DNA of 63,966 bases, filler included, from Atractiella rhizophila (Eukaryota): the NCBI GenBank assembly GCA_021432655.1. It is 4 parts of 4 records of this genome, joined end to end, with 100 filler letters (N's around TTAATTAATTAA, not from the genome) between each part and the next. Parts side by side here need not be neighbours in the genome. Positions count along the whole stretch, not along the records: positions 22,351 to 48,194 come from MU271764.1; 3 more parts are not named here. One strand, written 5' to 3'. The notes beneath the pieces were generated by a model. That model ran no database searches and had not been told where the DNA came from. It saw nothing but the letters and a program-made list of their open reading frames with translations. Position 1 is the first letter of the stretch, and the number at the start of each line of letters is the position of its first letter. A program made the position numbers and the translations under genes. Positions 9,127-61,508 of the stretch are shown piece by piece.

Positions 9127-10001
9127 NNNNNNNNNNNNNNNNNNNNNNNNNNNNNNNNNNNNNNNNNNNNNNNNNNNNNNNNNNNNNNNNNNNNNNNNNN
9201 NNNNNNNNNNNNNNNNNNNNNNNNNNNNNNNNNNNNNNNNNNNNNNNNNNNNNNNNNNNNNNNNNNNNNNNNNNNNNNNNNNNNNNNNNNNNNNNNNNNN
9301 NNNNNNNNNNNNNNNNNNNNNNNNNNNNNNNNNNNNNNNNNNNNNNNNNNNNNNNNNNNNNNNNNNNNNNNNNNNNNNNNNNNNNNNNNNNNNNNNNNNN
9401 NNNNNNNNNNNNNNNNNNNNNNNNNNNNNNNNNNNNNNNNNNNNNNNNNNNNNNNNNNNNNNNNNNNNNNNNNNNNNNNNNNNNNNNNNNNNNNNNNNNN
9501 NNNNNNNNNNNNNNNNNNNNNNNNNNNNNNNNNNNNNNNNNNNNNNNNNNNNNNNNNNNNNNNNNNNNNNNNNNNNNNNNNNNNNNNNNNNNNNNNNNNN
9601 NNNNNNNNNNNNNNNNNNNNNNNNNNNNNNNNNNNNNNNNNNNNNNNNNNNNNNNNNNNNNNNNNNNNNNNNNNNNNNNNNNNNNNNNNNNNNNNNNNNN
9701 NNNNNNNNNNNNNNNNNNNNNNNNNNNNNNNNNNNNNNNNNNNNNNNNNNNNNNNNNNNNNNNNNNNNNNNNNNNNNNNNNNNNNNNNNNNNNNNNNNNN
9801 NNNNNNNNNNNNNNNNNNNNNNNNNNNNNNNNNNNNNNNNNNNNNNNNNNNNNNNNNNNNNNNNNNNNNNNNNNNNNNNNNNNNNNNNNNNNNNNNNNNN
9901 NNNNNNNNNNNNNNNNNNNNNNNNNNNNNNNNNNNNNNNNNNNNNNNNNNNNNNNNNNNNNNNNNNNNNNNNNNNNNNNNNNNNNNNNNNNNNNNNNNNN
10001 N
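9127..10001. other. Assembly gap (N run)
   Basis: Continuous Ns. Confidence 1.
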
Positions 10002-22250: not shown

Positions 22251-22350
22251 NNNNNNNNNNNNNNNNNNNNNNNNNNNNNNNNNNNNNNNNNNNNTTAATT
22301 AATTAANNNNNNNNNNNNNNNNNNNNNNNNNNNNNNNNNNNNNNNNNNNN
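22251..22350. other. Contig-join spacer N44-TTAATTAATTAA-N44 (artificial)
   Basis: Identical 100-nt structure at three places; stops in all six frames. Confidence 0.97.
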
Positions 22351-34275: not shown

Positions 34276-35178
34276 AACGAGGAGAAGGCGGTCCTCAATG
34301 CGGTTTTGCTGTCAGAAAATAAATAAACAGGACAGAGATGATTGAATTTCGTGTTCACCTCGATTAGAGTGCTGTTGGTAACAGCGATATTTGCTGAAGG
34401 CGAGCTCTCGAAAGGTACCGCAGTGGGATTCCTAGCTGCGAGTGAGATGCGGATTGAGAAGGCGTTACATATGAAGCACCTTTGTGGCACAGATTCAGCT
34501 GCATCCAGGTTCAGCCAATTGCATTGCAGATAAATGTAGACGCTCACATTGGATCACTTGAGAGGGTGGTATGTTTTGCCCAGCTTGAGCTTTAAGAATG
34601 GCGTCTGGCCCCAAGCTATGCTCTGTTAGCATCATCAGACACTTCGAGATCAAATTGAAGCACCATTTCTTGGACGTAGTAGGTGCAATGGTATTGAGTG
34701 ACATCGAGCCAGGCGAATTACGTAATGCTTAAACTTTGAAAGTTGAGACGATTTGGTTCAGCGTTGGACCAGGACCGGACGTTGGACGGTTAGTTGGGGC
34801 TGCAGTTGAACTAGATTGCTGAACTTTTGAGCTCCTGAGGCGCTGAGGTTGGAAACATTGGTGAGGTTCCACTCTCTTTTTGAAGAAGGAGTGCGAGTTG
34901 AATGGAGTGCTTGCTGCCAGTGAGCTTAAGCGCGACATATATGTCAGAGCTGTCAGAACTGTAATTCAAATGTGCCATTTCCGCCCGCTACAATCCAGGC
35001 GGGGGAAATTTGACGAAATGTTCCCTGGCGCCATCCCTTCTACTTCTGCATCACTGCCACCCTCGCCATACTATTCTACTCCCACTCCAGGACAACCCGA
35101 CGCCTCGTATCCGCCCTACCAGCTGATCTTTCCGTCGCAGTGAAAACGGTGGATACCTTGGATGGATTTGACCTAGAT

Positions 35179-35829
35179 TGTGAGGCTTGACCTTCTAACA
35201 ATGTAAGATAATATTAAGCTCAAGCGGTAAACGCGAGTTTAAGTAATTAATGTCTCTTCAAGCTAATAGCGAGATTAAGGCTCAACTTTAAGCAGGAGCT
35301 TAAGTGCATGCAACCTCACAGTTATAAGGTTCTGCAAGAACGTTGCGCGGTCTCGTAAACGCGTGTTTAACACGTGGCACAACTCTATTTTACAACAGTC
35401 TATTGAACTGAGGGAACTTACTGGTACTCCGGGCTTAAGTTTTGCGGTCAGGTGCAAAATCAAGCAGTGGAGAGGTGGAAAAAAGCTGAATTTCAATGAG
35501 GAGGAGAGAGGCCTTTTATAGGCTCTCAGGACTCACTTGGTTTGTATGTTACAAGAGGTAAACAAAGCAAACAAAGCGAAATATTAGCTAAAATAGGAAA
35601 AAAGCGAAAAATACATAGTAAGCCATAGAGAATCCCCCATTCCTATTGGAGGGATTCTCTGCCGTCCAAGGCACGGATTCAGATTAATGCTGACTCCTCA
35701 GAAAGGATTTAAGAGGAGGAAAGTGGAGGGGGCCGAAAAAGGCTTATTTCGATGTTTTTTGCTTTAAGGTTCCCGCTTCCAAAATAGGAAACGCTGCGGA
35801 ATCCTTTGTCTTAAGGTACGCATCTCACA
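35179..35829 (-). repeat. 3' LTR (651 bp)
   Basis: TG...CA termini; matches 45312-45963 except one G in a homopolymer. Confidence 0.97.
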
Positions 35830-37142
35830 TATGCCGCAGTGGGATTTCTAGCTGCGAGTGAGATGAGAATCGACAAGGAATTACATGTGAAGCACCTTTG
35901 AGGCACAGATTCAGCTGCATCCAGGTTCAGCCAATTGCATTTCAGATAAATGTTGACTGTTGACGCTCACGTTGGATCACCTGAGAGGATATGTTTTGCT
36001 CGGCTTGAGCTCCGAGAACGGTGTCTGGTCCCAAGCTATACTCTGTCAGTCTCATCAGACACGTTGAGATCAAATTGAAGCACCATTTCATGGACGTAGC
36101 AGATATAACGGTACTGGACGACATCGAGCCAGGCGAATTACGTAATACTTGAAACTTGGTGAGACCTTGATCTGACTATTTAGGCTCAGGTTAGTTGCGG
36201 CTGAGCAGCTGGACTAGATGGCTGAACTTCTGAGGCGCTGAGGTTAGAAACATTGCTGAGGTGCCACTCTCTTATTGATTGGAGAGGTCTCAGCGGAAGC
36301 GCTGAAGCGCAAGCGAAAAAGAGAAAGTTGTGTCAGAACTGTAATTCCAATGTTGCCTTTTCCGCCCGCTCCACTTCAAACAAGGAAGAACGATCAGGAA
36401 ATCCGTGGAAATCTGGCGAAATGTTCCCTGGCGCCTTCCCTTCCAATTCTGCACCACCGCCGCCTCTCACCATACTATACTACTCTCACTCCAGCACAAC
36501 CCGCCGCCTCGTGTCCGTCCTCACGAAAAACATACCTGCAGATCTTGCCGTGGAAGTGAAAACAGTGCATATCTTGGATGGATTTGACCTGGATGATCTG
36601 TTGGATGGCTCCACGCCGAGATGGATTGTGTGGATGATACTAGCTACAAGGCGGAGGAGGGCGGTGGAGTTGTAAAAGGCTGGGTGGTGGAAAGATGGCT
36701 TTCCTTTTGGAGTAAGAGGCTTCATTCTTGTTCTTCTGGTTCAAATGAAGACACGCTTGCATCTCTTTTAAGCGAGTTCTTTTTTCTTTGCATAGATGAA
36801 CGCATTGCACTTTAGTTGACATGATTATGCGTTCTCCCTACCTTCATCTAAGATACGCCACCTGCTTTCTAATCTGTGAGAGTTCAACAGCTTGTGCAGA
36901 ACGAAATCATGAAATCAACACTTTATCGTGGCAAAGAGCAAGATCATTTGGAGCGTTTACAGGAGCGTTAGCCTGCTGCCGGTCTGTGTAACGTTCTTAT
37001 TCTTGCAGTTTCGCAAGGGCAAGAACCTGAACACCAAACTAGAAAAATTCTTATGTACGCTGGAATGCGGCATTGCTCGTTTGGTACTGCTTTTCAACTT
37101 TTCTGGTATGGTAGTAACATTTTCTGCTATGTGCATCCTCGC
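35830..37142 (+). repeat. Diverged paralog of the element's own flanks (34420-35178 + 45969-46490), uninterrupted
   Basis: Collinear similarity, e.g. CCGCAGTGGGATT.CTAGCTGCGAGTGAGATG. The empty site TTGACCTGGATGATCTGTTGGATG at ~36584-36607 corresponds to the split site TTGACCTAGAT|GATCTGTTGGATG. Confidence 0.92.
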
Positions 37143-37943
37143 AGGACCCCGGCCTAACGCTAAGAGGTCAGATAAAAGCCATACAGGTTTAGACCCAGTT
37201 TGGACACGAGGGTTTTACCCCAAATTTGACACTTCTGCATCTAACCCAAATTTCGGATCGCATTTTGGACACAAACTAATCTAACCTGGAGAGACAAGTT
37301 TGATGGTTGATAGGGCATAAATTGCAATTCATATACATTTGTAAACCATTCTAGGTCGATTCTGAGCCAATAGAACAAAGGGTGTAAAGAGAAGTTCTCG
37401 CTGGAGGGGGACAACCTTACTTCTGCTGGCACATCTTTCCAACAATGTCTCTTCCCGACTCAATGAAGCGAACATTTGAAGAGTTAACTGGTTGTTCTAT
37501 ACGCACAAGAGCACGGACGGATCACTGCTTGAGACCTTCAAAACAAATCGGTGAACGAGAAGTGAAGACATACAGATCACAGTCACTGGGCTGACTGAGA
37601 GCACCTCCTCCGATCGCCCAGAGGTAACCTGGCCAAGGTCTTCTTCCACCTGCCGTTGCCTCAGCAGCTTCTTTCTTTCTATTCCCAGGGAAGGTAGGAT
37701 TCTTTGGGGCAGCTGAATACGCCAGTGTCGAGCAGATCACAGCTGGCGCACTCATTCGCATTAACTCATTCTCGTTACTGCCGCGTTGATCAGTCGGGTT
37801 AAGTGGAGGTCAATTTTCGACTCTTGATTATTCCATATTATTCTCAATCGCCATGGACGGAGGACTCGCACAAGGATAAGCTTGCAAGTATCATTGACCA
37901 TTCGAGGCTACACATATAATAAGTACTCGCAGGAAAGAAGAGG

Positions 37944-38845
37944 ATGCCAATGCCCACCATTCCACTCTATCTATCCTCCGCCTCCTCATCCAAGTCCAAC
38001 AATCGTCCTCCCCCGCCTCCTCCCAAGAATCCTTCTCACCATCTATCCGCATCCAGCCATCTATCCCCTACCACCCCCAACTCCCACGGATCGTCAAGTG
38101 GTCATTCCAATGAGCACTTGGATAGGAATAGGAGCCCAGTAAGGAGAAGGAGGGGAGAAGAGTTGAATGATTCCCTGTCGACGACGAGCGAAGAGCTGGA
38201 CTCTGACGAGAGCGCGGGGACACGGTTGCAGCATGTCGATACGACTACTTCTGCGCCACCTTTTCCGAATGGAAGTGGGAGTGAGGCTGGGGTGCGGGAA
38301 GCAAAGGTGCGCAATCTTCCGCCACGAGATAGAGGAAGTGGGAATGGACGGAGTGCTGTCACGCTTGAGCGGAGTGGCAATACACTGGGGATCATGAGCG
38401 GAGTGGCAATACACTGGGGATCATGAGCGGAGTGGCAATACACTGGGGATCATGAGCGGAAGTGGAAGTGGTAGTTGGAGCAAGAATGGAACTGGGAGTG
38501 GTCTAGGGATGGGCCGACGCATCCAGCGCCGCCAAAACGCAAATCCATCCGTCTACCCTCCTTCAAATCCACATTCAACCGCACGCTCCCTCTCCCTCCT
38601 CTCCTCCACTCCCCTCTCATCTTCATCCCCCTCTCCCTCCCCTAATTCTGCCTCTCATGCGTCCACCCCATTCACCTCCCGCTCTCCATACAGGATTCTC
38701 CCCGGCCTCTCCTTCTCCACAGACCACCTTCCCTCCCTCCGCTCCATCCGCAAAGTTCGTTCCTCATACACCACTCCCCACCCCTCCTCAACCACACCCT
38801 CAGACTTTCTTTCCGGGCTAAGCCAAGCATTCAACAAAGTATGGC
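37944..38845 (+). pseudogene. 5' fragment of a host gene (Ser/Pro/Gly-rich) inside the element; frameshifted and truncated
   Basis: ORFs 37944-38426 and 38452-38853 become one ORF if the 29-bp repeat is reduced to one copy. It ends where it meets the pol sequence. Confidence 0.7.
38366..38460 (+). repeat. 29-bp tandem repeat x3 plus 8 bp
   Basis: TGAGCGGAGTGGCAATACACTGGGGATCA at 38366, 38395 and 38424. Confidence 0.96.
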
Positions 38846-41800
38846 GCATGTAGTTGCACTCTGATCGCGTTTGGACCTATAAGTTCTGTTACAGGAAAGG
38901 GCCCTGCGAACTGATCATGTAGTTTTGGATGAGGATCCTTGAAATTAAAGTGTTTAGTGGAGATCATGACTTGGTCGCCGACTTGAATTGGGGAAGGCGT
39001 ATGATGCTTATCCCATCGATCCTTGGCTGCTACAAAAGCTTCATTGATACAGTCGACGGCTCGTTGATGAGCAAGGTCGAGCATGTTTGCAAAGTGGATT
39101 GCGCCTCTGTTTATATTCAGCGAAGACTGCTTAGATAACAAGAATGCCTGAGGAGCTAACGGTATATATCCTCTTTCTAATTCGAAAGGGCTCTTTCCCG
39201 TACTAGAGTGCTTTGAGGAATTGAAAGCGAATTCCAGAGCAGGCAGAAGAGATACCCAATCATGTGTAAATCCTAGGTCGTCAACCTGGTATAGACCAAA
39301 AGAACAATATCTTCGAATTGCATCCACTAGTGTTTGAATATGTCTTTCAGCTAATCCGTCAGTTTGAGCATGATATGCCGTAGACATAGCTAGACGTATT
39401 TTCAATATTTGCATCAGAGAGCTCCAGAAGGCAGCTGTGAACTTCGGGTCTCGATCGCTAACGATTGCTTTTTGTAATCCCGTATCTTTGAAGATATGAT
39501 TATAGTACAGCCATGCAGTATCTTTTCCATCTGCTGTGTCGTGAGTTGGGACCAGGCGCACTCGTTTGGTCAGTCTGTCAACAAACAAGATGATCGCGTT
39601 GTAGGATTCCTTTCCTGCAGGAGGTAATGCTGTTACAAAGTCCATGTTGGCTATTTCCCAAGGTCTGGAGGGTGTTTCTATCTTCTGCATCAACCCGTAT
39701 CTTTTACCCGTTTGCCTGTTTGCACGTTGGCAGACATCGCAAGAGCCACAGAATACATCAACGTCAGATGTCAGACTCGGCCACCAGGCTACTTGTCGAA
39801 CACGTTCGAGAGTTCTAGTATTGCCAAAGTGCCCTGATGTGTAGTCATCGTGGCAAGTAGTCAGGATAGAGGTTCGCGTGGGCTTGTCACCTATTACGAG
39901 GACTGAGTCAAGCCCATCACGTCGATACAGTAGGTTGTCCATAACAAAGAAACGTCCGTTTTCTACATCTCTTCGGAGTGCGGACGAGAGGGTAGACAGC
40001 AAGGCTGCCTTAGAAGCTTGTGGTCCAAGCTTAAGAGCTTCAAAAAGTGTGTTCAGCTGTTTGTCTTGTTGATATCCAAGACGTATCCCTTCGAATACTT
40101 CATCTTTCAGCTCAAGGACTGATATCGCGGCAATCTGAGGGATTGGTTCGTCATCCAAGTCAGCAGCTGGGTTAGTTGCGTCATTGGGTAGGGGATTTCG
40201 GGATAAGCTGTCGACATTGGAATGCTTCTTTCCTTCCCGATGTACAATTGTCATTCTTCCGCGATATTCCTGCACCGCTAATTGCCAGCGGAACATTTGT
40301 CGACTTGGAGTCTTTAATCCTAGGAGACTTTTCAGTGCCATGCAGTCTGTAACAACTTCAAATTCTGCGCCGTCAAGGTATTGATGGAGCTTTTCTAAAG
40401 ACCAAACCACAGCAAGGCATTCCAGTTGAGTGGCTGCATACCGTGTCTCTGCTGGTTTGAGCTGTCTTGAGATGTAGCAGATTACTTTTTCTAAGTTAGG
40501 ATTATCTTCCGATGGTTGCACTTGCTGAAGGACAGCGGCTATACCAATTCCACTAGCATCAGTATACAACTTAAAGGGTAGGTCGTATTTTGGCTGGCTT
40601 AGAAGTGGTGCGTTTATCAATGCTTCTTTCAAGTCCAGAAACGCTTTCTCGCTTTCTAAAGTCCAGTTCCATGCCACATCCTTTGACAGTAGTTTAGTCA
40701 GTGGTCTTGCACGGTCTGAGTACTTCTCAACGAACTTTCGATAGTAGCCTGCCAAGCCTAGAAAACTCTGAAGTTCTGCGACATTCTGAGGAGTAGGGAA
40801 TTGTTCTACTGCGGCTACTTTGTTGCTGTCGACCGCGATTTGCAGGCCACTGATCAGGTGTCCTAGATGAATTAAAGAGTCGAAAGAGAACTTGCACTTT
40901 TTGAGGGCAAGCGTAAAGTGTGCCTCTATCATGTGCCTGAACACTATTTTCAGATGCTCGAGATGTTCTACCCATGTACGAGAGAAGATTATGATATCAT
41001 CTATGTAGACGCGAACCCATCCTTCCTTGATATGATCTTTAAGAGATTCGTTCATGCATCGTTGGAAGACTGCTGGTGCGTTTTTTAAGCCGAACGGCAT
41101 TCTGATAAATTCATACAAGCCATCTGGTGTTACAAAGGCAGTCTTATGAACATCTTTTGGACGAATTCGGATCTGATGGAAGCCTTTATTTGCATCTAGT
41201 GCTGTGATGTACTTTGCTCCTTGTAGAGCAGATATTTGTTCGTCTACTAATGGCATTGGATATAAGTCACTCTTGGTTATAGCATTTAGCGCTCTGTAGT
41301 CTACGCACAATCTTGGATCCGACTTCTGACGATAGACCATGAGCGAAGGAGCTCTAAAGGTAGACGAGTTTGACTCTCTTATTACGCCAAGCTCCATGAG
41401 TTTGTCAACAGCTTCGCGGGTGTCTTTTCTTGCTGCTGGACTCATTGGGTATGGGCGCTTATTTACGCTTGGAGGGACTTTATCCTCGTCGACTGTTAAA
41501 TCAATATGCATTTCTATATCCTTGGCGGTTCCAAGTGGTTGATCGCCGTAGGCAAAGGCTTGGTGCATTTCGCAAAGGAGCTCTAACAATTGATCTCGTT
41601 GTGTTTGCGTTAGGTCTGGGCTAATCTGACAACCTTCCAGTGCTTCAAAGAAACTATGCCTTTGCTTGTCCGTCATTGGTGGACATAGCGGAGTAGCGGC
41701 TTTGTCGCTTTGAGCATGAGATTGCGCAGTTTGCAGATTTGATTGAGATTTAGGCGGAACTTGCATGTTCGTTTGTTTTCCGCTTCTCTCAGTTTTGTAT

Positions 41801-44800
41801 GCAAAGCTTTGCTTAAATCCTCCCACAGTAAAGAAAGGTCCCTTGTACGTGTGTATATCGATACCGTACAAGTTTATCATATCCAGACCTAGTATAAAAG
41901 GACTCGGGCAGGTGCCTGGACGGAGGACCAGAAATTCTACACCCAAGCGGATAGATCCTGCTGGATGAGGTAGAGTGATGGTGTCTACATATACTCCTAG
42001 TGGCCCTAAAGTAGTTCCAAAACTTTTCACTTCCTCTATTTGTGGTGGGAGAAGTTTCGATTCAAAGTTTGGGTCTAATTTTCTAAGCGCACCTGCATCA
42101 CAAGCTGTCATTGCTGCTCCAGAATCAATGCAGAGATTGATTGGTATGCCGCGCAATACTGCTGTGGCCATAACCGGAACATGTAAAGCATGAGCATGAC
42201 CTTTCTTTGGTCGCTTTATTATGGCAGGTGCGTCTTGCGTGCCAGAAGCAAGAATAATGTTGGTGGCTTGAGATATAGGAACCTGCACTGGAACTCCTGC
42301 ATCTGCTTGAGTCTGTTGTGTGGTTTTTTCGAGGGAGGCGCCTAAGTTGCCTATAGATGATTGAGGGGCTTCATTGCTGAAGCTAGGAGTTGATGCTTGT
42401 AATGATTGCAACTGGTAGTGATCTTCCAAAGAGTCTTTGAAAGAATCCCAAGTTGAATCAAGCGCTTGTAATCGTTCGGCTGCCTCAACTTCTTCTGCCC
42501 AGTCTATGTTTTCAACCGGGGGCAGTTCCACTATTTCAGCAGATGCAGATTCTTCGTGTTCAGTGCTTTGCTCAGTCGATGTGTTATCAAGAGCCTGTAG
42601 CTTTGCAGCAGGTGGTTTATTGAAGTTTGATGGTCTATTTTGAAAAGGGCACGTGTTAGACCGCTGAAAATTAGACCTGTCAACAGAGGGTTTCATTGCA
42701 GATACTGGGTCTGCTACTTTCGTATTAGATAACGTTTTTTGAGCGCTATTTGCTCCATTGAACAAGCGATTTGTTTGTTTTTTCGAGATCCCGACAACTT
42801 CCTCAAATGCTTTTACGAAATCAGAGATTCGTGGGTCTCTCCCGACCATTGGCCTAATTGCTAAGGCATATGATGGTTCAATATTACTATACATCATACC
42901 AATCACTTGTTGTGCTGAGATGCCAGGGTGTACAGTTCTCGCACGACGAATAAAGGCATTTGCCCATTGCGTAGGATCTTGGAAGCTATTTAGCGTATAA
43001 CGCATGCGCTCTAAGATTTCTCTTTGTCGCCTTAACCATGCATCGGTTTCAAAGCGATCAATGATTGCCTGTCTCCATTCCTCCCAGGAAGAGGGTCTTT
43101 CATCTTGTTCGAACTGTACTTCGACCGAAAACCAATCGTAAGCAGCATCTTTTAGTAGGATTGGCAATTTAGCCACAACTTGTTCGCCAGGCATGGCATA
43201 AGATGCAATCAGCTGATCTACTCTATTGATAAAGTCCCTATGATCGGATGTAGATAATCCATCGTAAGTTGGGAAGTCCGACGTCTTTGGCCAGAACTTA
43301 GGATCAGAGGTCACTACTTTTACTTCAGGAGTTTGTGACACAGAATTCGCAGTGCGTAAAGGGAAGCGAATGTTAGTTTTTTGCCTTTCTTCGAGCGAAG
43401 GTAGCTCTTGTTTAAAGCGCACAGAAGGCGTCTTAAACCCTGAAGCACCTGAAGCTCTTTCTTCATTAATGGTCACTTCCGAGCGTAATCCGTTGCTTCC
43501 CTGCGTCGCTTCTTTTCCTTGCACGCTCTTTTTCAAGTCAGCAAGTTCCATTAACACAACATCGAAGCGATAGTTCATAGCTCTAAGTACTTGTTGCGTT
43601 TCTTGTTGCAGATTGACAATGACCTCTGTTTGGTTCTTAGTCTTGTCGAATTTGTCCAACAGGACTTTTTGCATGTAATCTAGCTTGTCAAAAGCTTTAT
43701 CTTGATTTATTTCAACATGCGAGAAGAACATATCATTCTCCATGTTTTGTTCTTGGTGCAACGAGTAGTTTTGAAATTGCAAGTCCGAAGTTTCGGACTT
43801 AACTGCGCTGACAATGTCAGATTTCAAGTTTTCAAGCGTGTTTTGCCAGTCTTTAATGTTAAAAGAGTGATTAGCATTGCAATTCAATCTATTTGAATCC
43901 ATATTTATTGGGGAGCTTGCTTGTTGGCTTCCTGTTCCGCCTTGAAAGCCTTGAAGGCTTGAAACTCCGCCCAGGCTTGAGAGTCCCCGCCCGTGATTTG
44001 AACCGGTGCTACTCGGTTCCGAGGGCCGCGGGTTCTCTGTCTCTTGTACGTCCCCTCCCTCTCTCCGCCTTCCCAGTTCCTTTTCCTTTGCTGATAGGGC
44101 TGCTGTACGGGTTGCGCTCGTTGCTGCTGCAAGGGGGGAGGCAGTTGTTGCATGGAGGGGATTTGCTGAGCCATCTGGGGCTGCTGTGGGGCCACCTGTG
44201 GCTGAATGGGAGCGTGGGGCGCTCTGGCGGTGTTCGCGTTCGTTTGAAGCGTCTGCAATCAATTGATGAGTGGGGGGCCCATGTGGCAAAAGCATGGGAA
44301 GTGGGGGGGACGTACCGTACATACGGTCATCAAAGTTTCGACCGTCCCCTTGAGGGTGGCCACGGTTTGGGTTAAGGTTCGCACTTCCGTCAGCATAGTT
44401 TGCCGTCCCGTCGTTTCGGTTTGCAAGGCTTGTTCGATCTTTTGAATTGACGCTTGCAATTCCGCTGTTTTGGGCGCTGCGCGAGATCGAGTCGTCCCAG
44501 AAGAAGGGGTCGATTCGCTTGATTTCATCGTGGAGGCTTTCTTGCCCTTGCCCTGTAGCTTGCGCCGAATTAACAGGGTCCATTCTTTTCTCTTCTTGTA
44601 AAGAAGGTTTGAATACCGCACCTCTGGAGGCTCCGGGTCTGGATTCTGCTCCTTGGCCCAGAGGCCTATCAAGGCTGCAATTCTCTTCGTCTTCTCGACT
44701 TCGGGCACTTCGGTGAGTGGGGCTCCGACGTTCTTTGGCTTCGGAGGATTTATTGGGCCGGTGGGTCGTCCCATTGGAATCAACGGCGATTTGATCGGCT

Positions 44801-45246
44801 TGGCGCCCGCCGGCTATTTCGGGTAGGTTGTTTAGTTCAGTTCCACCTTCGTGAAGGCTGGAGAGAGGGGAGGACACACCTTCACTCTGGGGTCTCTCCT
44901 CGGGTCCCTGGTAGGCTCTGAGCCTCCTCCTCTGTCGGCTGTATCGGGTGTTGGCGGCTGGACCGTCTCTACTCCCTTCGAGGGAGTGGGATCCTCTGAA
45001 CCTGCCTCTGAGGGCACGATGGGGGGGGTTGGCGGGTCCAGATCCACGGTTTCGGGTCTCATTCCCGTCGTTCTGGGAAGCTCCGTGTGGAGGTCTTCCT
45101 TGATCGAGATCGGAGCCGAATCGGGATCTTCCTCCCATTCGGAATCGTCGATCGTTTGATCGGCTGTTTGACTGATCAATTGCTCGATCATCGGATCTTG
45201 GATTTGTCTGTCGGACATTTTCTAATCGCGAAAACATGTTAGACAT
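38818..45246 (-). CDS. Gag-Pol polyprotein, single ORF of 2142 aa, C-terminus truncated
   Basis: Capsid-like FPTYDG...LKDAAYDWF...SWEEWRQAIIDRF; protease CIDSGA; RT LCVDYRALN, MPFGLKNAP, VYIDDI; RNase H YTDASG, QLECLAVVW; integrase HHCC, MDFV, SDRDPKF, TDGLAER; GPFPV. Confidence 0.96.
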   Translation of the reverse strand: MSNMFSRLENVRQTNPRSDDRAIDQSNSRSNDRRFRMGGRSRFGSDLDQGRPPHGASQNDGNETRNRGSGPANPPHRALRGRFRGSHSLEGSRDGPAANTRYSRQRRRLRAYQGPEERPQSEGVSSPLSSLHEGGTELNNLPEIAGGRQADQIAVDSNGTTHRPNKSSEAKERRSPTHRSARSREDEENCSLDRPLGQGAESRPGASRGAVFKPSLQEEKRMDPVNSAQATGQGQESLHDEIKRIDPFFWDDSISRSAQNSGIASVNSKDRTSLANRNDGTANYADGSANLNPNRGHPQGDGRNFDDRMYGTSPPLPMLLPHGPPTHQLIADASNEREHRQSAPRSHSATGGPTAAPDGSANPLHATTASPLAAATSATRTAALSAKEKELGRRREGGDVQETENPRPSEPSSTGSNHGRGLSSLGGVSSLQGFQGGTGSQQASSPINMDSNRLNCNANHSFNIKDWQNTLENLKSDIVSAVKSETSDLQFQNYSLHQEQNMENDMFFSHVEINQDKAFDKLDYMQKVLLDKFDKTKNQTEVIVNLQQETQQVLRAMNYRFDVVLMELADLKKSVQGKEATQGSNGLRSEVTINEERASGASGFKTPSVRFKQELPSLEERQKTNIRFPLRTANSVSQTPEVKVVTSDPKFWPKTSDFPTYDGLSTSDHRDFINRVDQLIASYAMPGEQVVAKLPILLKDAAYDWFSVEVQFEQDERPSSWEEWRQAIIDRFETDAWLRRQREILERMRYTLNSFQDPTQWANAFIRRARTVHPGISAQQVIGMMYSNIEPSYALAIRPMVGRDPRISDFVKAFEEVVGISKKQTNRLFNGANSAQKTLSNTKVADPVSAMKPSVDRSNFQRSNTCPFQNRPSNFNKPPAAKLQALDNTSTEQSTEHEESASAEIVELPPVENIDWAEEVEAAERLQALDSTWDSFKDSLEDHYQLQSLQASTPSFSNEAPQSSIGNLGASLEKTTQQTQADAGVPVQVPISQATNIILASGTQDAPAIIKRPKKGHAHALHVPVMATAVLRGIPINLCIDSGAAMTACDAGALRKLDPNFESKLLPPQIEEVKSFGTTLGPLGVYVDTITLPHPAGSIRLGVEFLVLRPGTCPSPFILGLDMINLYGIDIHTYKGPFFTVGGFKQSFAYKTERSGKQTNMQVPPKSQSNLQTAQSHAQSDKAATPLCPPMTDKQRHSFFEALEGCQISPDLTQTQRDQLLELLCEMHQAFAYGDQPLGTAKDIEMHIDLTVDEDKVPPSVNKRPYPMSPAARKDTREAVDKLMELGVIRESNSSTFRAPSLMVYRQKSDPRLCVDYRALNAITKSDLYPMPLVDEQISALQGAKYITALDANKGFHQIRIRPKDVHKTAFVTPDGLYEFIRMPFGLKNAPAVFQRCMNESLKDHIKEGWVRVYIDDIIIFSRTWVEHLEHLKIVFRHMIEAHFTLALKKCKFSFDSLIHLGHLISGLQIAVDSNKVAAVEQFPTPQNVAELQSFLGLAGYYRKFVEKYSDRARPLTKLLSKDVAWNWTLESEKAFLDLKEALINAPLLSQPKYDLPFKLYTDASGIGIAAVLQQVQPSEDNPNLEKVICYISRQLKPAETRYAATQLECLAVVWSLEKLHQYLDGAEFEVVTDCMALKSLLGLKTPSRQMFRWQLAVQEYRGRMTIVHREGKKHSNVDSLSRNPLPNDATNPAADLDDEPIPQIAAISVLELKDEVFEGIRLGYQQDKQLNTLFEALKLGPQASKAALLSTLSSALRRDVENGRFFVMDNLLYRRDGLDSVLVIGDKPTRTSILTTCHDDYTSGHFGNTRTLERVRQVAWWPSLTSDVDVFCGSCDVCQRANRQTGKRYGLMQKIETPSRPWEIANMDFVTALPPAGKESYNAIILFVDRLTKRVRLVPTHDTADGKDTAWLYYNHIFKDTGLQKAIVSDRDPKFTAAFWSSLMQILKIRLAMSTAYHAQTDGLAERHIQTLVDAIRRYCSFGLYQVDDLGFTHDWVSLLPALEFAFNSSKHSSTGKSPFELERGYIPLAPQAFLLSKQSSLNINRGAIHFANMLDLAHQRAVDCINEAFVAAKDRWDKHHTPSPIQVGDQVMISTKHFNFKDPHPKLHDQFAGPFPVTELIGPNAIRVQLHAPYFVECLA
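43905..45218 (-). CDS. Predicted spliced accessory gene (ORF0) overprinted in the +1 frame on the gag N-terminal extension
   Basis: Exons 45218-44880, 44813-44325 and 44252-43905 give 391 aa. Introns GTGTGT...TAG (66 nt) and GTATGT...CAG (72 nt) contain all internal stops. Possible third intron 44621-44553 (69 nt). Confidence 0.72.
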
Positions 45247-45297
45247 GTGGTTTGAATTGGAGCTAAAATTAGCGTTGCGAATGCGCGCGACTTTTTT

Positions 45298-45309
45298 GCA
45301 AGGGTGCCA
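45298..45309 (-). promoter_or_regulatory. Putative tRNA primer-binding site
   Basis: TGGCACCCTTGC begins 2 nt after the 5' LTR on the minus strand; TGG is complementary to tRNA CCA. The cognate tRNA was not identified. Confidence 0.7.
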
Positions 45310-45311
45310 AT

Positions 45312-45963
45312 TGTGAGGCTTGACCTTCTAACAATGTAAGATAATATTAAGCTCAAGCGGTAAACGCGAGTTTAAGTAATTAATGTCTCTTCAAGCTAAT
45401 AGCGAGATTAAGGCTCAACTTTAAGCAGGAGCTTAAGTGCATGCAACCTCACAGTTATAAGGTTCTGCAAGAACGTTGCGCGGTCTCGTAAACGCGTGTT
45501 TAACACGTGGCACAACTCTATTTTACAACAGTCTATTGAACTGAGGGAACTTACTGGTACTCCGGGCTTAAGTTTTGCGGTCAGGTGCAAAATCAAGCAG
45601 TGGAGAGGTGGAAAAAAGCTGAATTTCAATGAGGAGGAGAGAGGCCTTTTATAGGCTCTCAGGACTCACTTGGTTTGTATGTTACAAGAGGTAAACAAAG
45701 CAAACAAAGCGAAATATTAGCTAAAATAGGAAAAAAGCGAAAAATACATAGTAAGCCATAGAGAATCCCCCATTCCTATTGGAGGGATTCTCTGCCGTCC
45801 AAGGCACGGATTCAGATTAATGCTGACTCCTCAGAAAGGATTTAAGAGGAGGAAAGTGGAGGGGGGCCGAAAAAGGCTTATTTCGATGTTTTTTGCTTTA
45901 AGGTTCCCGCTTCCAAAATAGGAAACGCTGCGGAATCCTTTGTCTTAAGGTACGCATCTCACA
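45312..45963 (-). repeat. 5' LTR (652 bp)
   Basis: Adjacent to the PBS and gag start. TATAAAA on the minus strand at 45647-45653; CArG box at 45913-45922. Confidence 0.97.
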
Positions 45964-46945
45964 TAGATGATCTGTTGGATGAGTTTACACCGAGATGGAT
46001 TGTATGGATGATACCCAGCTACAAGGCGGAGGTAGGTGGTAGAGGTGGGAAGAGCAGGGAGGTGGAGAGATGGGCAGAGGATAGGAAGTATGTAGTTTCC
46101 TTTTGGAGCAAGAGATTTCGTTCTCGTCCTTCTTGGTAAATGGAGACATGCTTTTCTTCTACTTAAGCAAGATCTTTTTTGCTCGCATATATGAACCGCC
46201 TTGCCCTTTAGTTGAAAGTGCTACAAGATACGCCCCATGTTTTCCAATATGTGTGAGTAGCAGCTTGTGCAGATCGAATGCCTGAAACACAACACTTTCC
46301 CACCTCGAGTGCAAAGTCATTTGGATGCGCTACGAGAAGGTGGACTGGATGCACATTGTTTCATGTAAATGCCATTTGTGTAACGTTCTTATTCTTGTTA
46401 ATGTAAACTGGAATGAGGACTTGCTCGTTTGGCACTGCTTTTGACGTCTCTGGTGTCCTAACACACATTCCCTACTGTGTGCATCCTCTCGCGTCTGTGT
46501 CAAACAGGGCAACGCTACATTTTTAAGTTTACTGTCGCACATAATGCTCTATCGACATGCAACGCAGGCAACGCATGACTAATCATTATTTGCACAGATA
46601 CGATCAACGACTGCACACCTTGATAGAACGATTGTCTCATACCATCTATACCCTTATCGCCATCGGCGACTCCGCCTACGGCCCGCTCTTCTGCAAGCAA
46701 CCACTCCATCTCGCTTCTCTCCTGAGCGAGATGGGTGCACGACAATTCCTCCGTTCGCAATGCCTCTCTTCTGTCTTAACAGGTCATGACTTGTGCCCCA
46801 CCGGCAGAGCAAGAAAGTGCGATGTAGCTGTCGATCCTGAAGAGACCATCCGCCAGTTCGCTTCCAGTCTATCAGACCGCGTCAACGAACTAGCGTCTCA
46901 ATATCACTCCAAAAACCTTGAAAGGTGGACAGAATTCCTCGACCT

Positions 46946-48194: not shown

Positions 48195-48294
48195 NNNNNN
48201 NNNNNNNNNNNNNNNNNNNNNNNNNNNNNNNNNNNNNNTTAATTAATTAANNNNNNNNNNNNNNNNNNNNNNNNNNNNNNNNNNNNNNNNNNNN
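48195..48294. other. Contig-join spacer (artificial)
   Basis: N44-TTAATTAATTAA-N44. Confidence 0.97.
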
Positions 48295-61408: not shown

Positions 61409-61508
61409 NNNNNNNNNNNNNNNNNNNNNNNNNNNNNNNNNNNNNNNNNNNNTTAATTAATTAANNNNNNNNNNNNNNNNNNNNNNNNNNNNNNNNNNNN
61501 NNNNNNNN
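61409..61508. other. Contig-join spacer (artificial)
   Basis: N44-TTAATTAATTAA-N44. Confidence 0.97.

Follow-up and report, generated by a model that had tools for sequence, protein, structure and literature searches.

Can one stretch of DNA in a fungal retrotransposon be read in two frames of the same strand, with splicing deciding which of the two is used? The question is raised by a locus in a 63,966-nt stretch of the genome of Atractiella rhizophila (GenBank assembly GCA_021432655.1; the whole stretch is called the window here), in which positions 35179-45963 are, on the minus strand, a Ty3/gypsy long terminal repeat (LTR) retrotransposon that was inserted very recently into a gene-rich fungal region. 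A first-pass annotation, made from the sequence alone, had proposed an intron-containing gene lying over the gag N-terminus of this element. Our analysis suggests that the 1.3 kb between the leader and Gag is probably read in two frames, with splicing making the choice: the spliced RNA would give a protein that we call ORF0, and the unspliced RNA would give Gag-Pol.

The Gag-Pol frame spans 2169 codons from stop to stop (45327..38818). The ORF0 frame is +1 to it and consists of three open reading frame (ORF) pieces (45218-44832, 44783-44259 and 44258-43905), and these coordinates bear out the earlier description of three minus-strand ORFs that share one frame, +1 to gag-pol. The Gag-Pol side of the overlap is laid out as follows:

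38818..45246, minus strand: Gag-Pol ORF from the ATG at 45246, 2142 codons, with Pfam domains from RVT_1 to rve.
43903..45246, minus strand: N-terminal extension of the Gag-Pol frame, 448 codons, rich in S, R and G, without a stop.
43900..43902, minus strand: in-frame Gag ATG (TAAatATGg; A at -3, G at +4), 2 nt past the ORF0 stop.

Splice joints were taken from contigs of four public runs (X3 to X6) placed on positions 35840-45965. X4 carries another organism code and belongs to another study than X3; the kind of run is given as '?' for X3 and, as a guess, as 'RNA?' for X4; among runs filed as RNA, none was found to contain the stretch. The resulting exons and introns are:

45555..45605, minus strand: exon 1, 5' untranslated region without an ATG, from the X3 contig, though the actual 5' end could be upstream of this.
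45222..45554, minus strand: leader intron, 333 nt, GTAAGT...TTAG, with the joint between 45221 and 45555 found in one X3 contig.
44880..45218, minus strand: ORF0 coding exon, residues 1-113, acidic and Pro-rich, from X3 and X4 contigs.
44814..44879, minus strand: intron 1, 66 nt, GTGTGT...ATAG, in X3 and X4; two stops in the ORF0 frame and zero in the Gag-Pol frame.
44622..44813, minus strand: ORF0 exon, residues 114-177, from X3 and X4 contigs.
44553..44621, minus strand: intron 2, 69 nt, GTGCGG...ACAG, in X3 and X4; no stop in either frame.
44316..44552, minus strand: ORF0 exon, residues 178-256, from X3 and X4 contigs.
44253..44315, minus strand: intron 3, 63 nt, GTACGT...GCAG, in X3 and X4; one stop in the ORF0 frame.
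43905..44252, minus strand: last ORF0 exon, residues 257-371 and the TAA; Q/P-rich, with an NLS-like motif (nuclear localization signal, RKRNWEGGEREGTYKRQRT) and a C-terminal helix.

One X3 contig (1118 nt, depth 78, 0 mismatches) joins 45605-45555, 45221-44880, 44813-44621, 44551-44316 and 44252-43957 in succession, and the three coding joints are also present in X4 contigs, with 1-5 mismatches per piece. The joints that the two runs have in common connect 44813 with 44880, 44551/2 with 44621/2 and 44252 with 44316, and all four skipped segments have CT..AC ends on the plus strand, which is GT..AG on the minus strand. Joints with such ends in both X3 and X4 indicate that all three candidate coding introns are real. 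Two of them had been predicted as they stand, namely the 66-nt segment 44879-44814 and the stop-free 69-nt candidate 44621-44553; for the third, the 63-nt version with the GTACGT donor at 44315 proved right and the 72-nt version with GTATGT at 44324 wrong, and the product has 371 aa rather than the 391 or 368 aa expected. Missed had been the 333-nt leader intron, through which the first start codon becomes that of ORF0 instead of one in the Gag-Pol frame.

We infer that the joined contigs represent mRNA. Independently of the contigs, the 371 aa encoded by the spliced sequence match a hypothetical protein annotated in Atractiella rhizophila at every residue, and the exon structure of ORF0 is already a public gene model, unrecognised there as part of a retrotransposon. 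Low-depth pieces of X5 and X6 retain introns 2 and 1, respectively, and one X5 contig reads through intron 2. Retention of intron 2, which is open in both frames, would make a 394-aa isoform of ORF0 possible, with 23 extra residues including KKRKEW. Among the matches listed (12, with 54 more), pieces of X4-X6 within 43595-44969 (1924 nt) show 28 substitutions and 0 gaps. At 85% likeness, X3-X6 gave no cover of the Gag-Pol body (38882-43275) or of U3 (45642-45965). Two further observations are recorded here and not used as evidence: X3 and X4 cover stops near 43595-43614, which would fit an ORF0 mRNA of about 1.5 kb, and such a short mRNA would end about 300 nt past the ORF0 stop, with ATAAA motifs lying near 43700.

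The leader intron acts on the choice of start codon, for which three features of the 5' end matter:

45646..45653, minus strand: TATAAAAG box within the LTR, located 48 nt upstream of where the spliced contig starts (45605); the transcription start site is a tentative one.
45312..45963, minus strand: 5' LTR, TGTGAG...CTCACA; compared with 35179-35829 it has 0 mismatches and one 1-nt indel.
45298..45309, minus strand: primer-binding-site-like TGGCACCCTTGC (TGG...), 2 nt past the 5' LTR.

The spliced contig begins inside the 5' LTR, at 45605, and crosses four GT..AG joints. On the unspliced leader the ATGs follow each other in the order 45442, which opens a 20-codon upstream ORF (uORF), 45246 and 45237, both in the Gag-Pol frame, and 45218, the start of ORF0. 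With its donor within the LTR and its acceptor 3 nt ahead of ATG 45218, the leader intron takes out U5, the primer-binding site (PBS), ATG 45442 with its uORF and the Gag-Pol-frame ATGs 45246 and 45237. Because exon 1 has no ATG and the leader intron removes the others, the ORF0 ATG at 45218 is the first ATG of the spliced RNA. Its context is AAAATGT; that of ATG 45246 is weak, with C at -3.

We infer that both frames are translated, in the following way. The unspliced RNA would serve as genome and as Gag-Pol mRNA: it would keep the PBS, and ATG 45246, met after the 20-codon uORF, would open a 448-residue extension, predicted to be disordered, followed by Gag, protease, reverse transcriptase and RNase H, then integrase. 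The three small introns would be read through in the Gag-Pol frame because they hold no stop there. In the spliced RNA, loss of the leader intron would remove the PBS, the uORF and the Gag-Pol ATGs, loss of the three small introns, whose lengths are multiples of three (3n), would remove the +1-frame stops, and ORF0 would be made; with the PBS gone, this RNA would not be reverse-transcribable. The splice ratio would set ORF0 against Gag-Pol.

Over 1342 nt the minus-strand frames hold 0, 5 and 18 stops and the plus-strand frames 10, 15 and 13, and within the exons there are 0 in the Gag-Pol frame, 1 in the ORF0 frame (its terminator) and 15 in the third frame, so that stop triplets are not rare but are confined to the unused frame. 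When the ORF0 protein and its codons were held fixed, 11.0 Gag-Pol-frame stops were expected by synonymous permutation and 10.3 by codon shuffle, against 0 observed; an outcome of zero stops occurred in 0 of 20000 trials under each null, and the lowest count seen was 2. The three introns were free of Gag-Pol-frame stops in 1505 of 20000 shuffles (0.075), and their stop-free state is what unspliced translation needs. That all three coding introns are 3n has a chance of 1/27, and as a result of these lengths every splice isoform keeps the Gag-Pol frame. All 3 internal stops of the ORF0 frame lie within the 66 intron codons of 437, for which our own arithmetic gives a chance of about 0.003. The first-pass annotation had described these points in the same way, with every internal stop inside a predicted intron, 3n introns and an R/S/G-rich gag frame that is stop-free for 448 codons. 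The Gag-Pol frame is held open through exons and introns far beyond chance, and the two long frames stand open on one stretch of DNA to a degree that base composition plus a single coding frame would not yield.

These counts bear directly on an alternative that we consider unlikely, in which only ORF0 is translated here, Gag-Pol starts at ATG 43902 (with ribosomes arriving there through leaky scanning, by reinitiating past the ORF0 stop or on another transcript) and the open upstream frame is a relic, left for instance by an ancestor in which it did code. A relic frame would decay, yet this one has 0 stops where 11 were expected (0/20000), and its introns are stop-free too. The idea draws on the setting of ATG 43902, which stands 2 nt past the ORF0 TAA with A at -3 and G at +4, and at which the base composition shifts exactly: T makes up 8-14% of the coding strand per 100 nt from about 45150 to 43951, then 24-27% just past the ORF0 stop. 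TAAatATG is found at 43907-43900, the ORF0 stop overlaps AATAAA and the AT (and T) content rises beyond it, all as originally described. It draws as well on the weak context of ATG 45246 and on the lack, in the extension itself (448 aa, 13% hydrophobic residues), of a Pfam family and of a confident structure, with a mean predicted local distance difference test score (pLDDT) of 42.6 in AlphaFold2 (AF2) and 0 residues at 70 or above. On the unspliced RNA, however, ATGs 45246 and 45237 come before the ORF0 ATG, and the spliced contigs do not reach far past 43595, so that reinitiation on that mRNA could not yield Pol. The spacing in TAAatATGg could permit termination-reinitiation on a spliced RNA that extends further 3'.

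What kind of protein would ORF0 be? Its 371 aa begin with an acidic, Pro-rich first exon (net charge -15), and its central feature is encoded by one interrupted segment:

44226..44471, minus strand: DNA of the long ORF0 helix or coiled coil, residues 205-265, split by the 63-nt intron.

AF2 predicts helix 205-265 with a block pLDDT of 91-95, and 78 residues of ORF0 reach at least 70; further helices are predicted at 151-169 and at the C terminus (347-367), and a Q/P-rich tract follows the long helix. The heptad score of 10 was reached by 0 of 2000 shuffles. A bipartite NLS-like motif, RKRNWEGGEREGTYKRQRT, is located at residue 312, and there is one match resembling a nuclear export signal at 244. 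When residues 196-270 were modelled as a parallel in-register dimer, the score was 0.41, compared with 0.01 for the best of 3 controls, and the runs agreed in at least 93% of contacts with a partner pLDDT of at least 81; the mark set for a dimer was reached by 21 of 30 same-chain pairs and 0 of 23 single chains from microbes, and by 17 of 29 and 0 of 30, respectively, from eukaryotes. Coiled coils resemble many solved complexes, and the pass of the predicted dimer may reflect this likeness rather than binding.

Along the overlap, protein-like sequence changes sides. At 44479-44540 the Gag-Pol frame reads the protein-like DEIKRIDPFFWDD and ORF0 an S/T-rich run, and in the region of the coiled coil this is reversed; constraint seems to alternate locally between the Gag-Pol frame and ORF0. 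A codon table built on the window's host genes ranks ORF0 first among the three frames (0.026 vs -0.19 and -0.43). Since its stops are spliced out, its ATG is first after splicing, it carries the heptad pattern and its codon use is the most gene-like, we take ORF0 to be real. If it were not a functional protein, the Gag-Pol extension would be all that is encoded here, splicing would be a by-product or would lower the amount of full-length RNA, and the 371-aa record would be a gene prediction. We find this quite improbable: the leader intron drops the Gag-Pol ATGs and leaves the ORF0 ATG first and in good context, all three +1-frame stops are spliced out (about 0.003 by chance), and the helix is confident in the ORF0 frame only. 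It has in its favour that, once the Gag-Pol-frame protein is given, the +1 frame is not uncommonly open across the exons (11% of permutations), that ORF0 is an orphan and mostly disordered, and that 3n introns also keep the Gag-Pol frame after splicing.

Searches for the origin of ORF0 returned little beyond ORF0. Among proteins of 204-650 aa its only relative was itself, and exon 4 compared with longer proteins again found only ORF0; phmmer with exons 2-3 against 1.84 billion representatives gave ORF0 and one other match, a 1108-aa repeat protein that we judged spurious, with 16 short stretches on query positions 22-67. A single 21-residue match in a scan of viral contigs was judged to be chance. 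A metagenome scan with the ORF0 protein produced 230 pattern matches with 0 confirmed, and one with an exact 22-mer had 0 matches. No match was found for polyprotein residues 28-900 among proteins of 1192-3796 aa, nor for ORF0 among PDB sequences (0 matches), and the ESM Atlas offered no usable feature match and only structural neighbours with template modelling (TM) scores of 0.29 or below.

The captured or domesticated host gene favoured in the first-pass annotation is unsupported by these results, because no ORF0 homologue was found in the searches, including those covering the annotated proteins of the same species in the database. That ORF0 is a captured host gene, or an element-derived gene serving the host from a dead copy, appears very improbable to us. 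The GC content of ORF0 by codon position (0.60/0.51/0.63) does resemble that of the window's host genes (about 0.6 at third positions) and is unlike that of the Gag-Pol body (0.40 at third positions), ORF0 has spliceosomal introns and one copy on record, and the element, whose integrase is truncated and whose 3' module is foreign, has a chimeric look. Capture through RNA would, however, normally lose introns, and identical LTRs, like the intact frame of 2142 codons, speak against a copy long dead. Composition is undecisive on origin because the overlap forces T depletion at all codon positions (0.10/0.17/0.11), and the T depletion is specific to the overlap and explained by two-frame coding. 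Overprinting, or an origin diverged past recognition, fits ORF0 better than capture, and ORF0 presumably arose by overprinting on the extension, since a disordered, stop-poor extension lets a second frame open easily. A different candidate, in which ORF0 would be Gag proper or a frameshifted portion of Gag, was rejected: the sequence that resembles Gag is found downstream, in the other frame, and in that case nothing would require the upstream Gag-Pol frame to stay open.

Outside viruses, it is rare for eukaryotic DNA to have two coding frames that overlap on one strand over a long distance. Complex retroviruses express tat/rev or tax/rex from spliced subgenomic mRNAs with overprinted, overlapping frames and a leader donor that decides the start codon, and the arrangement described here is reminiscent of these regulatory genes. 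The retroviral genes overlap env or the 3' region, whereas ORF0 overlaps the extension of Gag in an element without env. In the glyco-Gag of murine leukaemia virus an upstream start lengthens Gag, with no overlapping gene known. In copia-type elements pol is spliced out, which leaves an mRNA for Gag alone without a change of frame; splicing likewise picks the protein in our element, but here a different protein in another frame would be exposed. Some lineages of the plant Ogre/Tat elements combine introns with an extra ORF besides gag-pol. The additional ORFs of plant LTR retrotransposons treated in PMC7264820 are found mostly on the 3' side of pol, without overlap with the polyprotein; ORF0 is likewise an extra ORF borne by the element, but full overlap with the polyprotein frame and a start switch by a leader intron are not described there.

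The closest counterpart is CERV of Cer1, a Ty3/gypsy element of C. elegans (PMC10309623). CERV is made from a five-exon spliced mRNA with one exon in its own frame, and its part in the export of genomic RNA was shown there by genetics. Like ORF0, it is an accessory protein of an LTR retrotransposon that is multiply spliced, overlaps the polyprotein, features a helix like a leucine zipper as well as a candidate NLS, and lacks homologues outside its host group (PMC10309623). ORF0 differs in that all 371 codons lie upstream of Gag and out of frame throughout, and in that the host is a fungus; the role of ORF0 is a proposed one. In literature outside most subscription journals we found neither a report of this element nor one of a fungal LTR retrotransposon with a spliced, overlapping ORF. 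The first-pass annotation knew of no described fungal example; a general claim that nothing comparable has been reported would go too far, given CERV.

With a spliced gene present and the Gag-Pol frame open through it beyond chance, both as first proposed, a splice-dependent accessory protein is the best reading of ORF0. ORF0 may be a nuclear, self-associating or oligomeric accessory factor of the element, and our best guess is that, like CERV and Rev, it would control what becomes of the intron-containing RNA of the element itself. A fuller version, in which the element has evolved an expression programme similar to that of complex retroviruses, and ORF0 arose de novo by overprinting, is expressed solely from a multiply spliced subgenomic mRNA after the start switch by the leader intron and would act as a Rev/CERV-like nuclear oligomer through which the intron-containing genomic RNA escapes splicing and leaves the nucleus, we regard as rather improbable.

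Several points weigh against two-frame reading with a splice-dependent ORF0. A processed copy present in DNA could also account for the joined form, in which case splicing would still be implied, though no expression at present, and the leader joint comes from a single contig with 51 nt on its short side. In the reverse test, with the Gag-Pol-frame protein held fixed, the ORF0 frame had a mean of 2.6 stops, and one or none in 2226 of 20000 trials; openness of the ORF0 frame in the exons alone is weak evidence. ORF0 is mostly predicted to be disordered (mean pLDDT 58.9 in AF2, 0.48 in the Atlas model), and its 9 Pfam matches to coiled-coil families are all below the curated cut-offs, the best being TolA_bind_tri with 18.3 bits against 30.1. 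No relatives of ORF0, of the extension or of Gag were found in the protein and metagenome searches, and the suggested nuclear role in RNA fate is a best guess from likeness at the level of motifs. The element may also be defective, with its integrase SH3-like domain cut short and its 3' LTR without a purine tract: the match to SH3_Tf2-1 covers profile positions 1-44 of 64 only, at 28.6 bits against a cut-off of 30, and no polypurine tract was found directly upstream of the 3' LTR.

The remaining anatomy is that of a recently inserted element:

35179..35829, minus strand: 3' LTR; the LTR pair measures 651/652 bp.
45964..45968, no strand: target-site duplication TAGAT, with its second copy at 35174-35178.
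35830..38837, minus strand: 3' module after the truncated integrase, without a long ORF and without a purine tract before the 3' LTR.

By Pfam, RVT_1 (residues 1338-1485), RT_RNaseH (1581-1688), Integrase_H2C2 (1815-1871) and rve (1887-1986) follow each other in the Ty3/gypsy order. A DSG motif occurs at residue 1068 of the Gag-Pol frame, in which Pfam gave no match for a protease, and a W..F/W..W pattern near residues 720-760, together with position, suggests a Gag candidate; residues 476-1076 had only weak chance matches in Pfam (E up to 1). The neighbours of the insertion are ordinary host genes (APC10, PSP1, Myb/SWIRM and WD40), the element with ORF0 is a single copy on record, and a search of the window found no second one. 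At 36540-36650 uninterrupted paralogous sequence carries a single TGGAT at the place matching TAGAT. Ahead of the 3' LTR (35832-35880) the minus strand reads ...gcagctagaaatcccactgcggcaTA and then TGTGAG; a missing polypurine tract is unusual beside identical LTRs.

The Gag-Pol ORF ends at 38818, within the SH3-like domain of the integrase. Over 38545-38838 the X3 contigs are nearly identical to the window; at 38838 they part from it and run on upstream into other, G-rich sequence, and the element looks recombinant, carrying the 3' part of another abundant sequence family. Near 38100-38830 the minus strand of the 3' module is rich in G, and the module contains a direct repeat (38366-38406 and 38424-38465; 41/42 nt, 97.6% identity), and contigs about 90% alike cover 37868-38881 at a depth near 1200. 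The flanks 34418-35178 and 45966-46488 together form a 75-80% paralogue of positions 35834-37140 of the element (1.3 kb), and the insertion point is a contiguous position of that paralogue, so that the element sits in a relative of the sequence it carries; it may have come to lie there by chance, through a preference for such targets or because it is nested in an older relative. Elsewhere in the window there are three pairs of 44-base runs of N, the runs of a pair being 12 bases apart (22251-22350, 48195-48294 and 61409-61508), and one run of 875 bases (9127-10001); these may be masked or withheld stretches or assembly gaps.

For retroelements, the locus bears on how the balance of spliced and unspliced RNA is kept. 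About 1.1 kb would be read in two frames, the choice between them falling to splicing; it is a small and tractable case, and one that allows a test of the birth of new proteins by overprinting on a disordered region. It also raises the question of whether the regulated export of intron-containing genomic RNA, seen in complex retroviruses and Cer1, arose independently in fungi; if ORF0 does act like Rev or CERV, it would be the first such fungal regulator and an independent third invention after those of the retroviruses and Cer1. As ORF0 is filed as an ordinary host protein and our search turned up no recorded long polyprotein, spliced accessory genes of fungal retrotransposons may be overlooked systematically.

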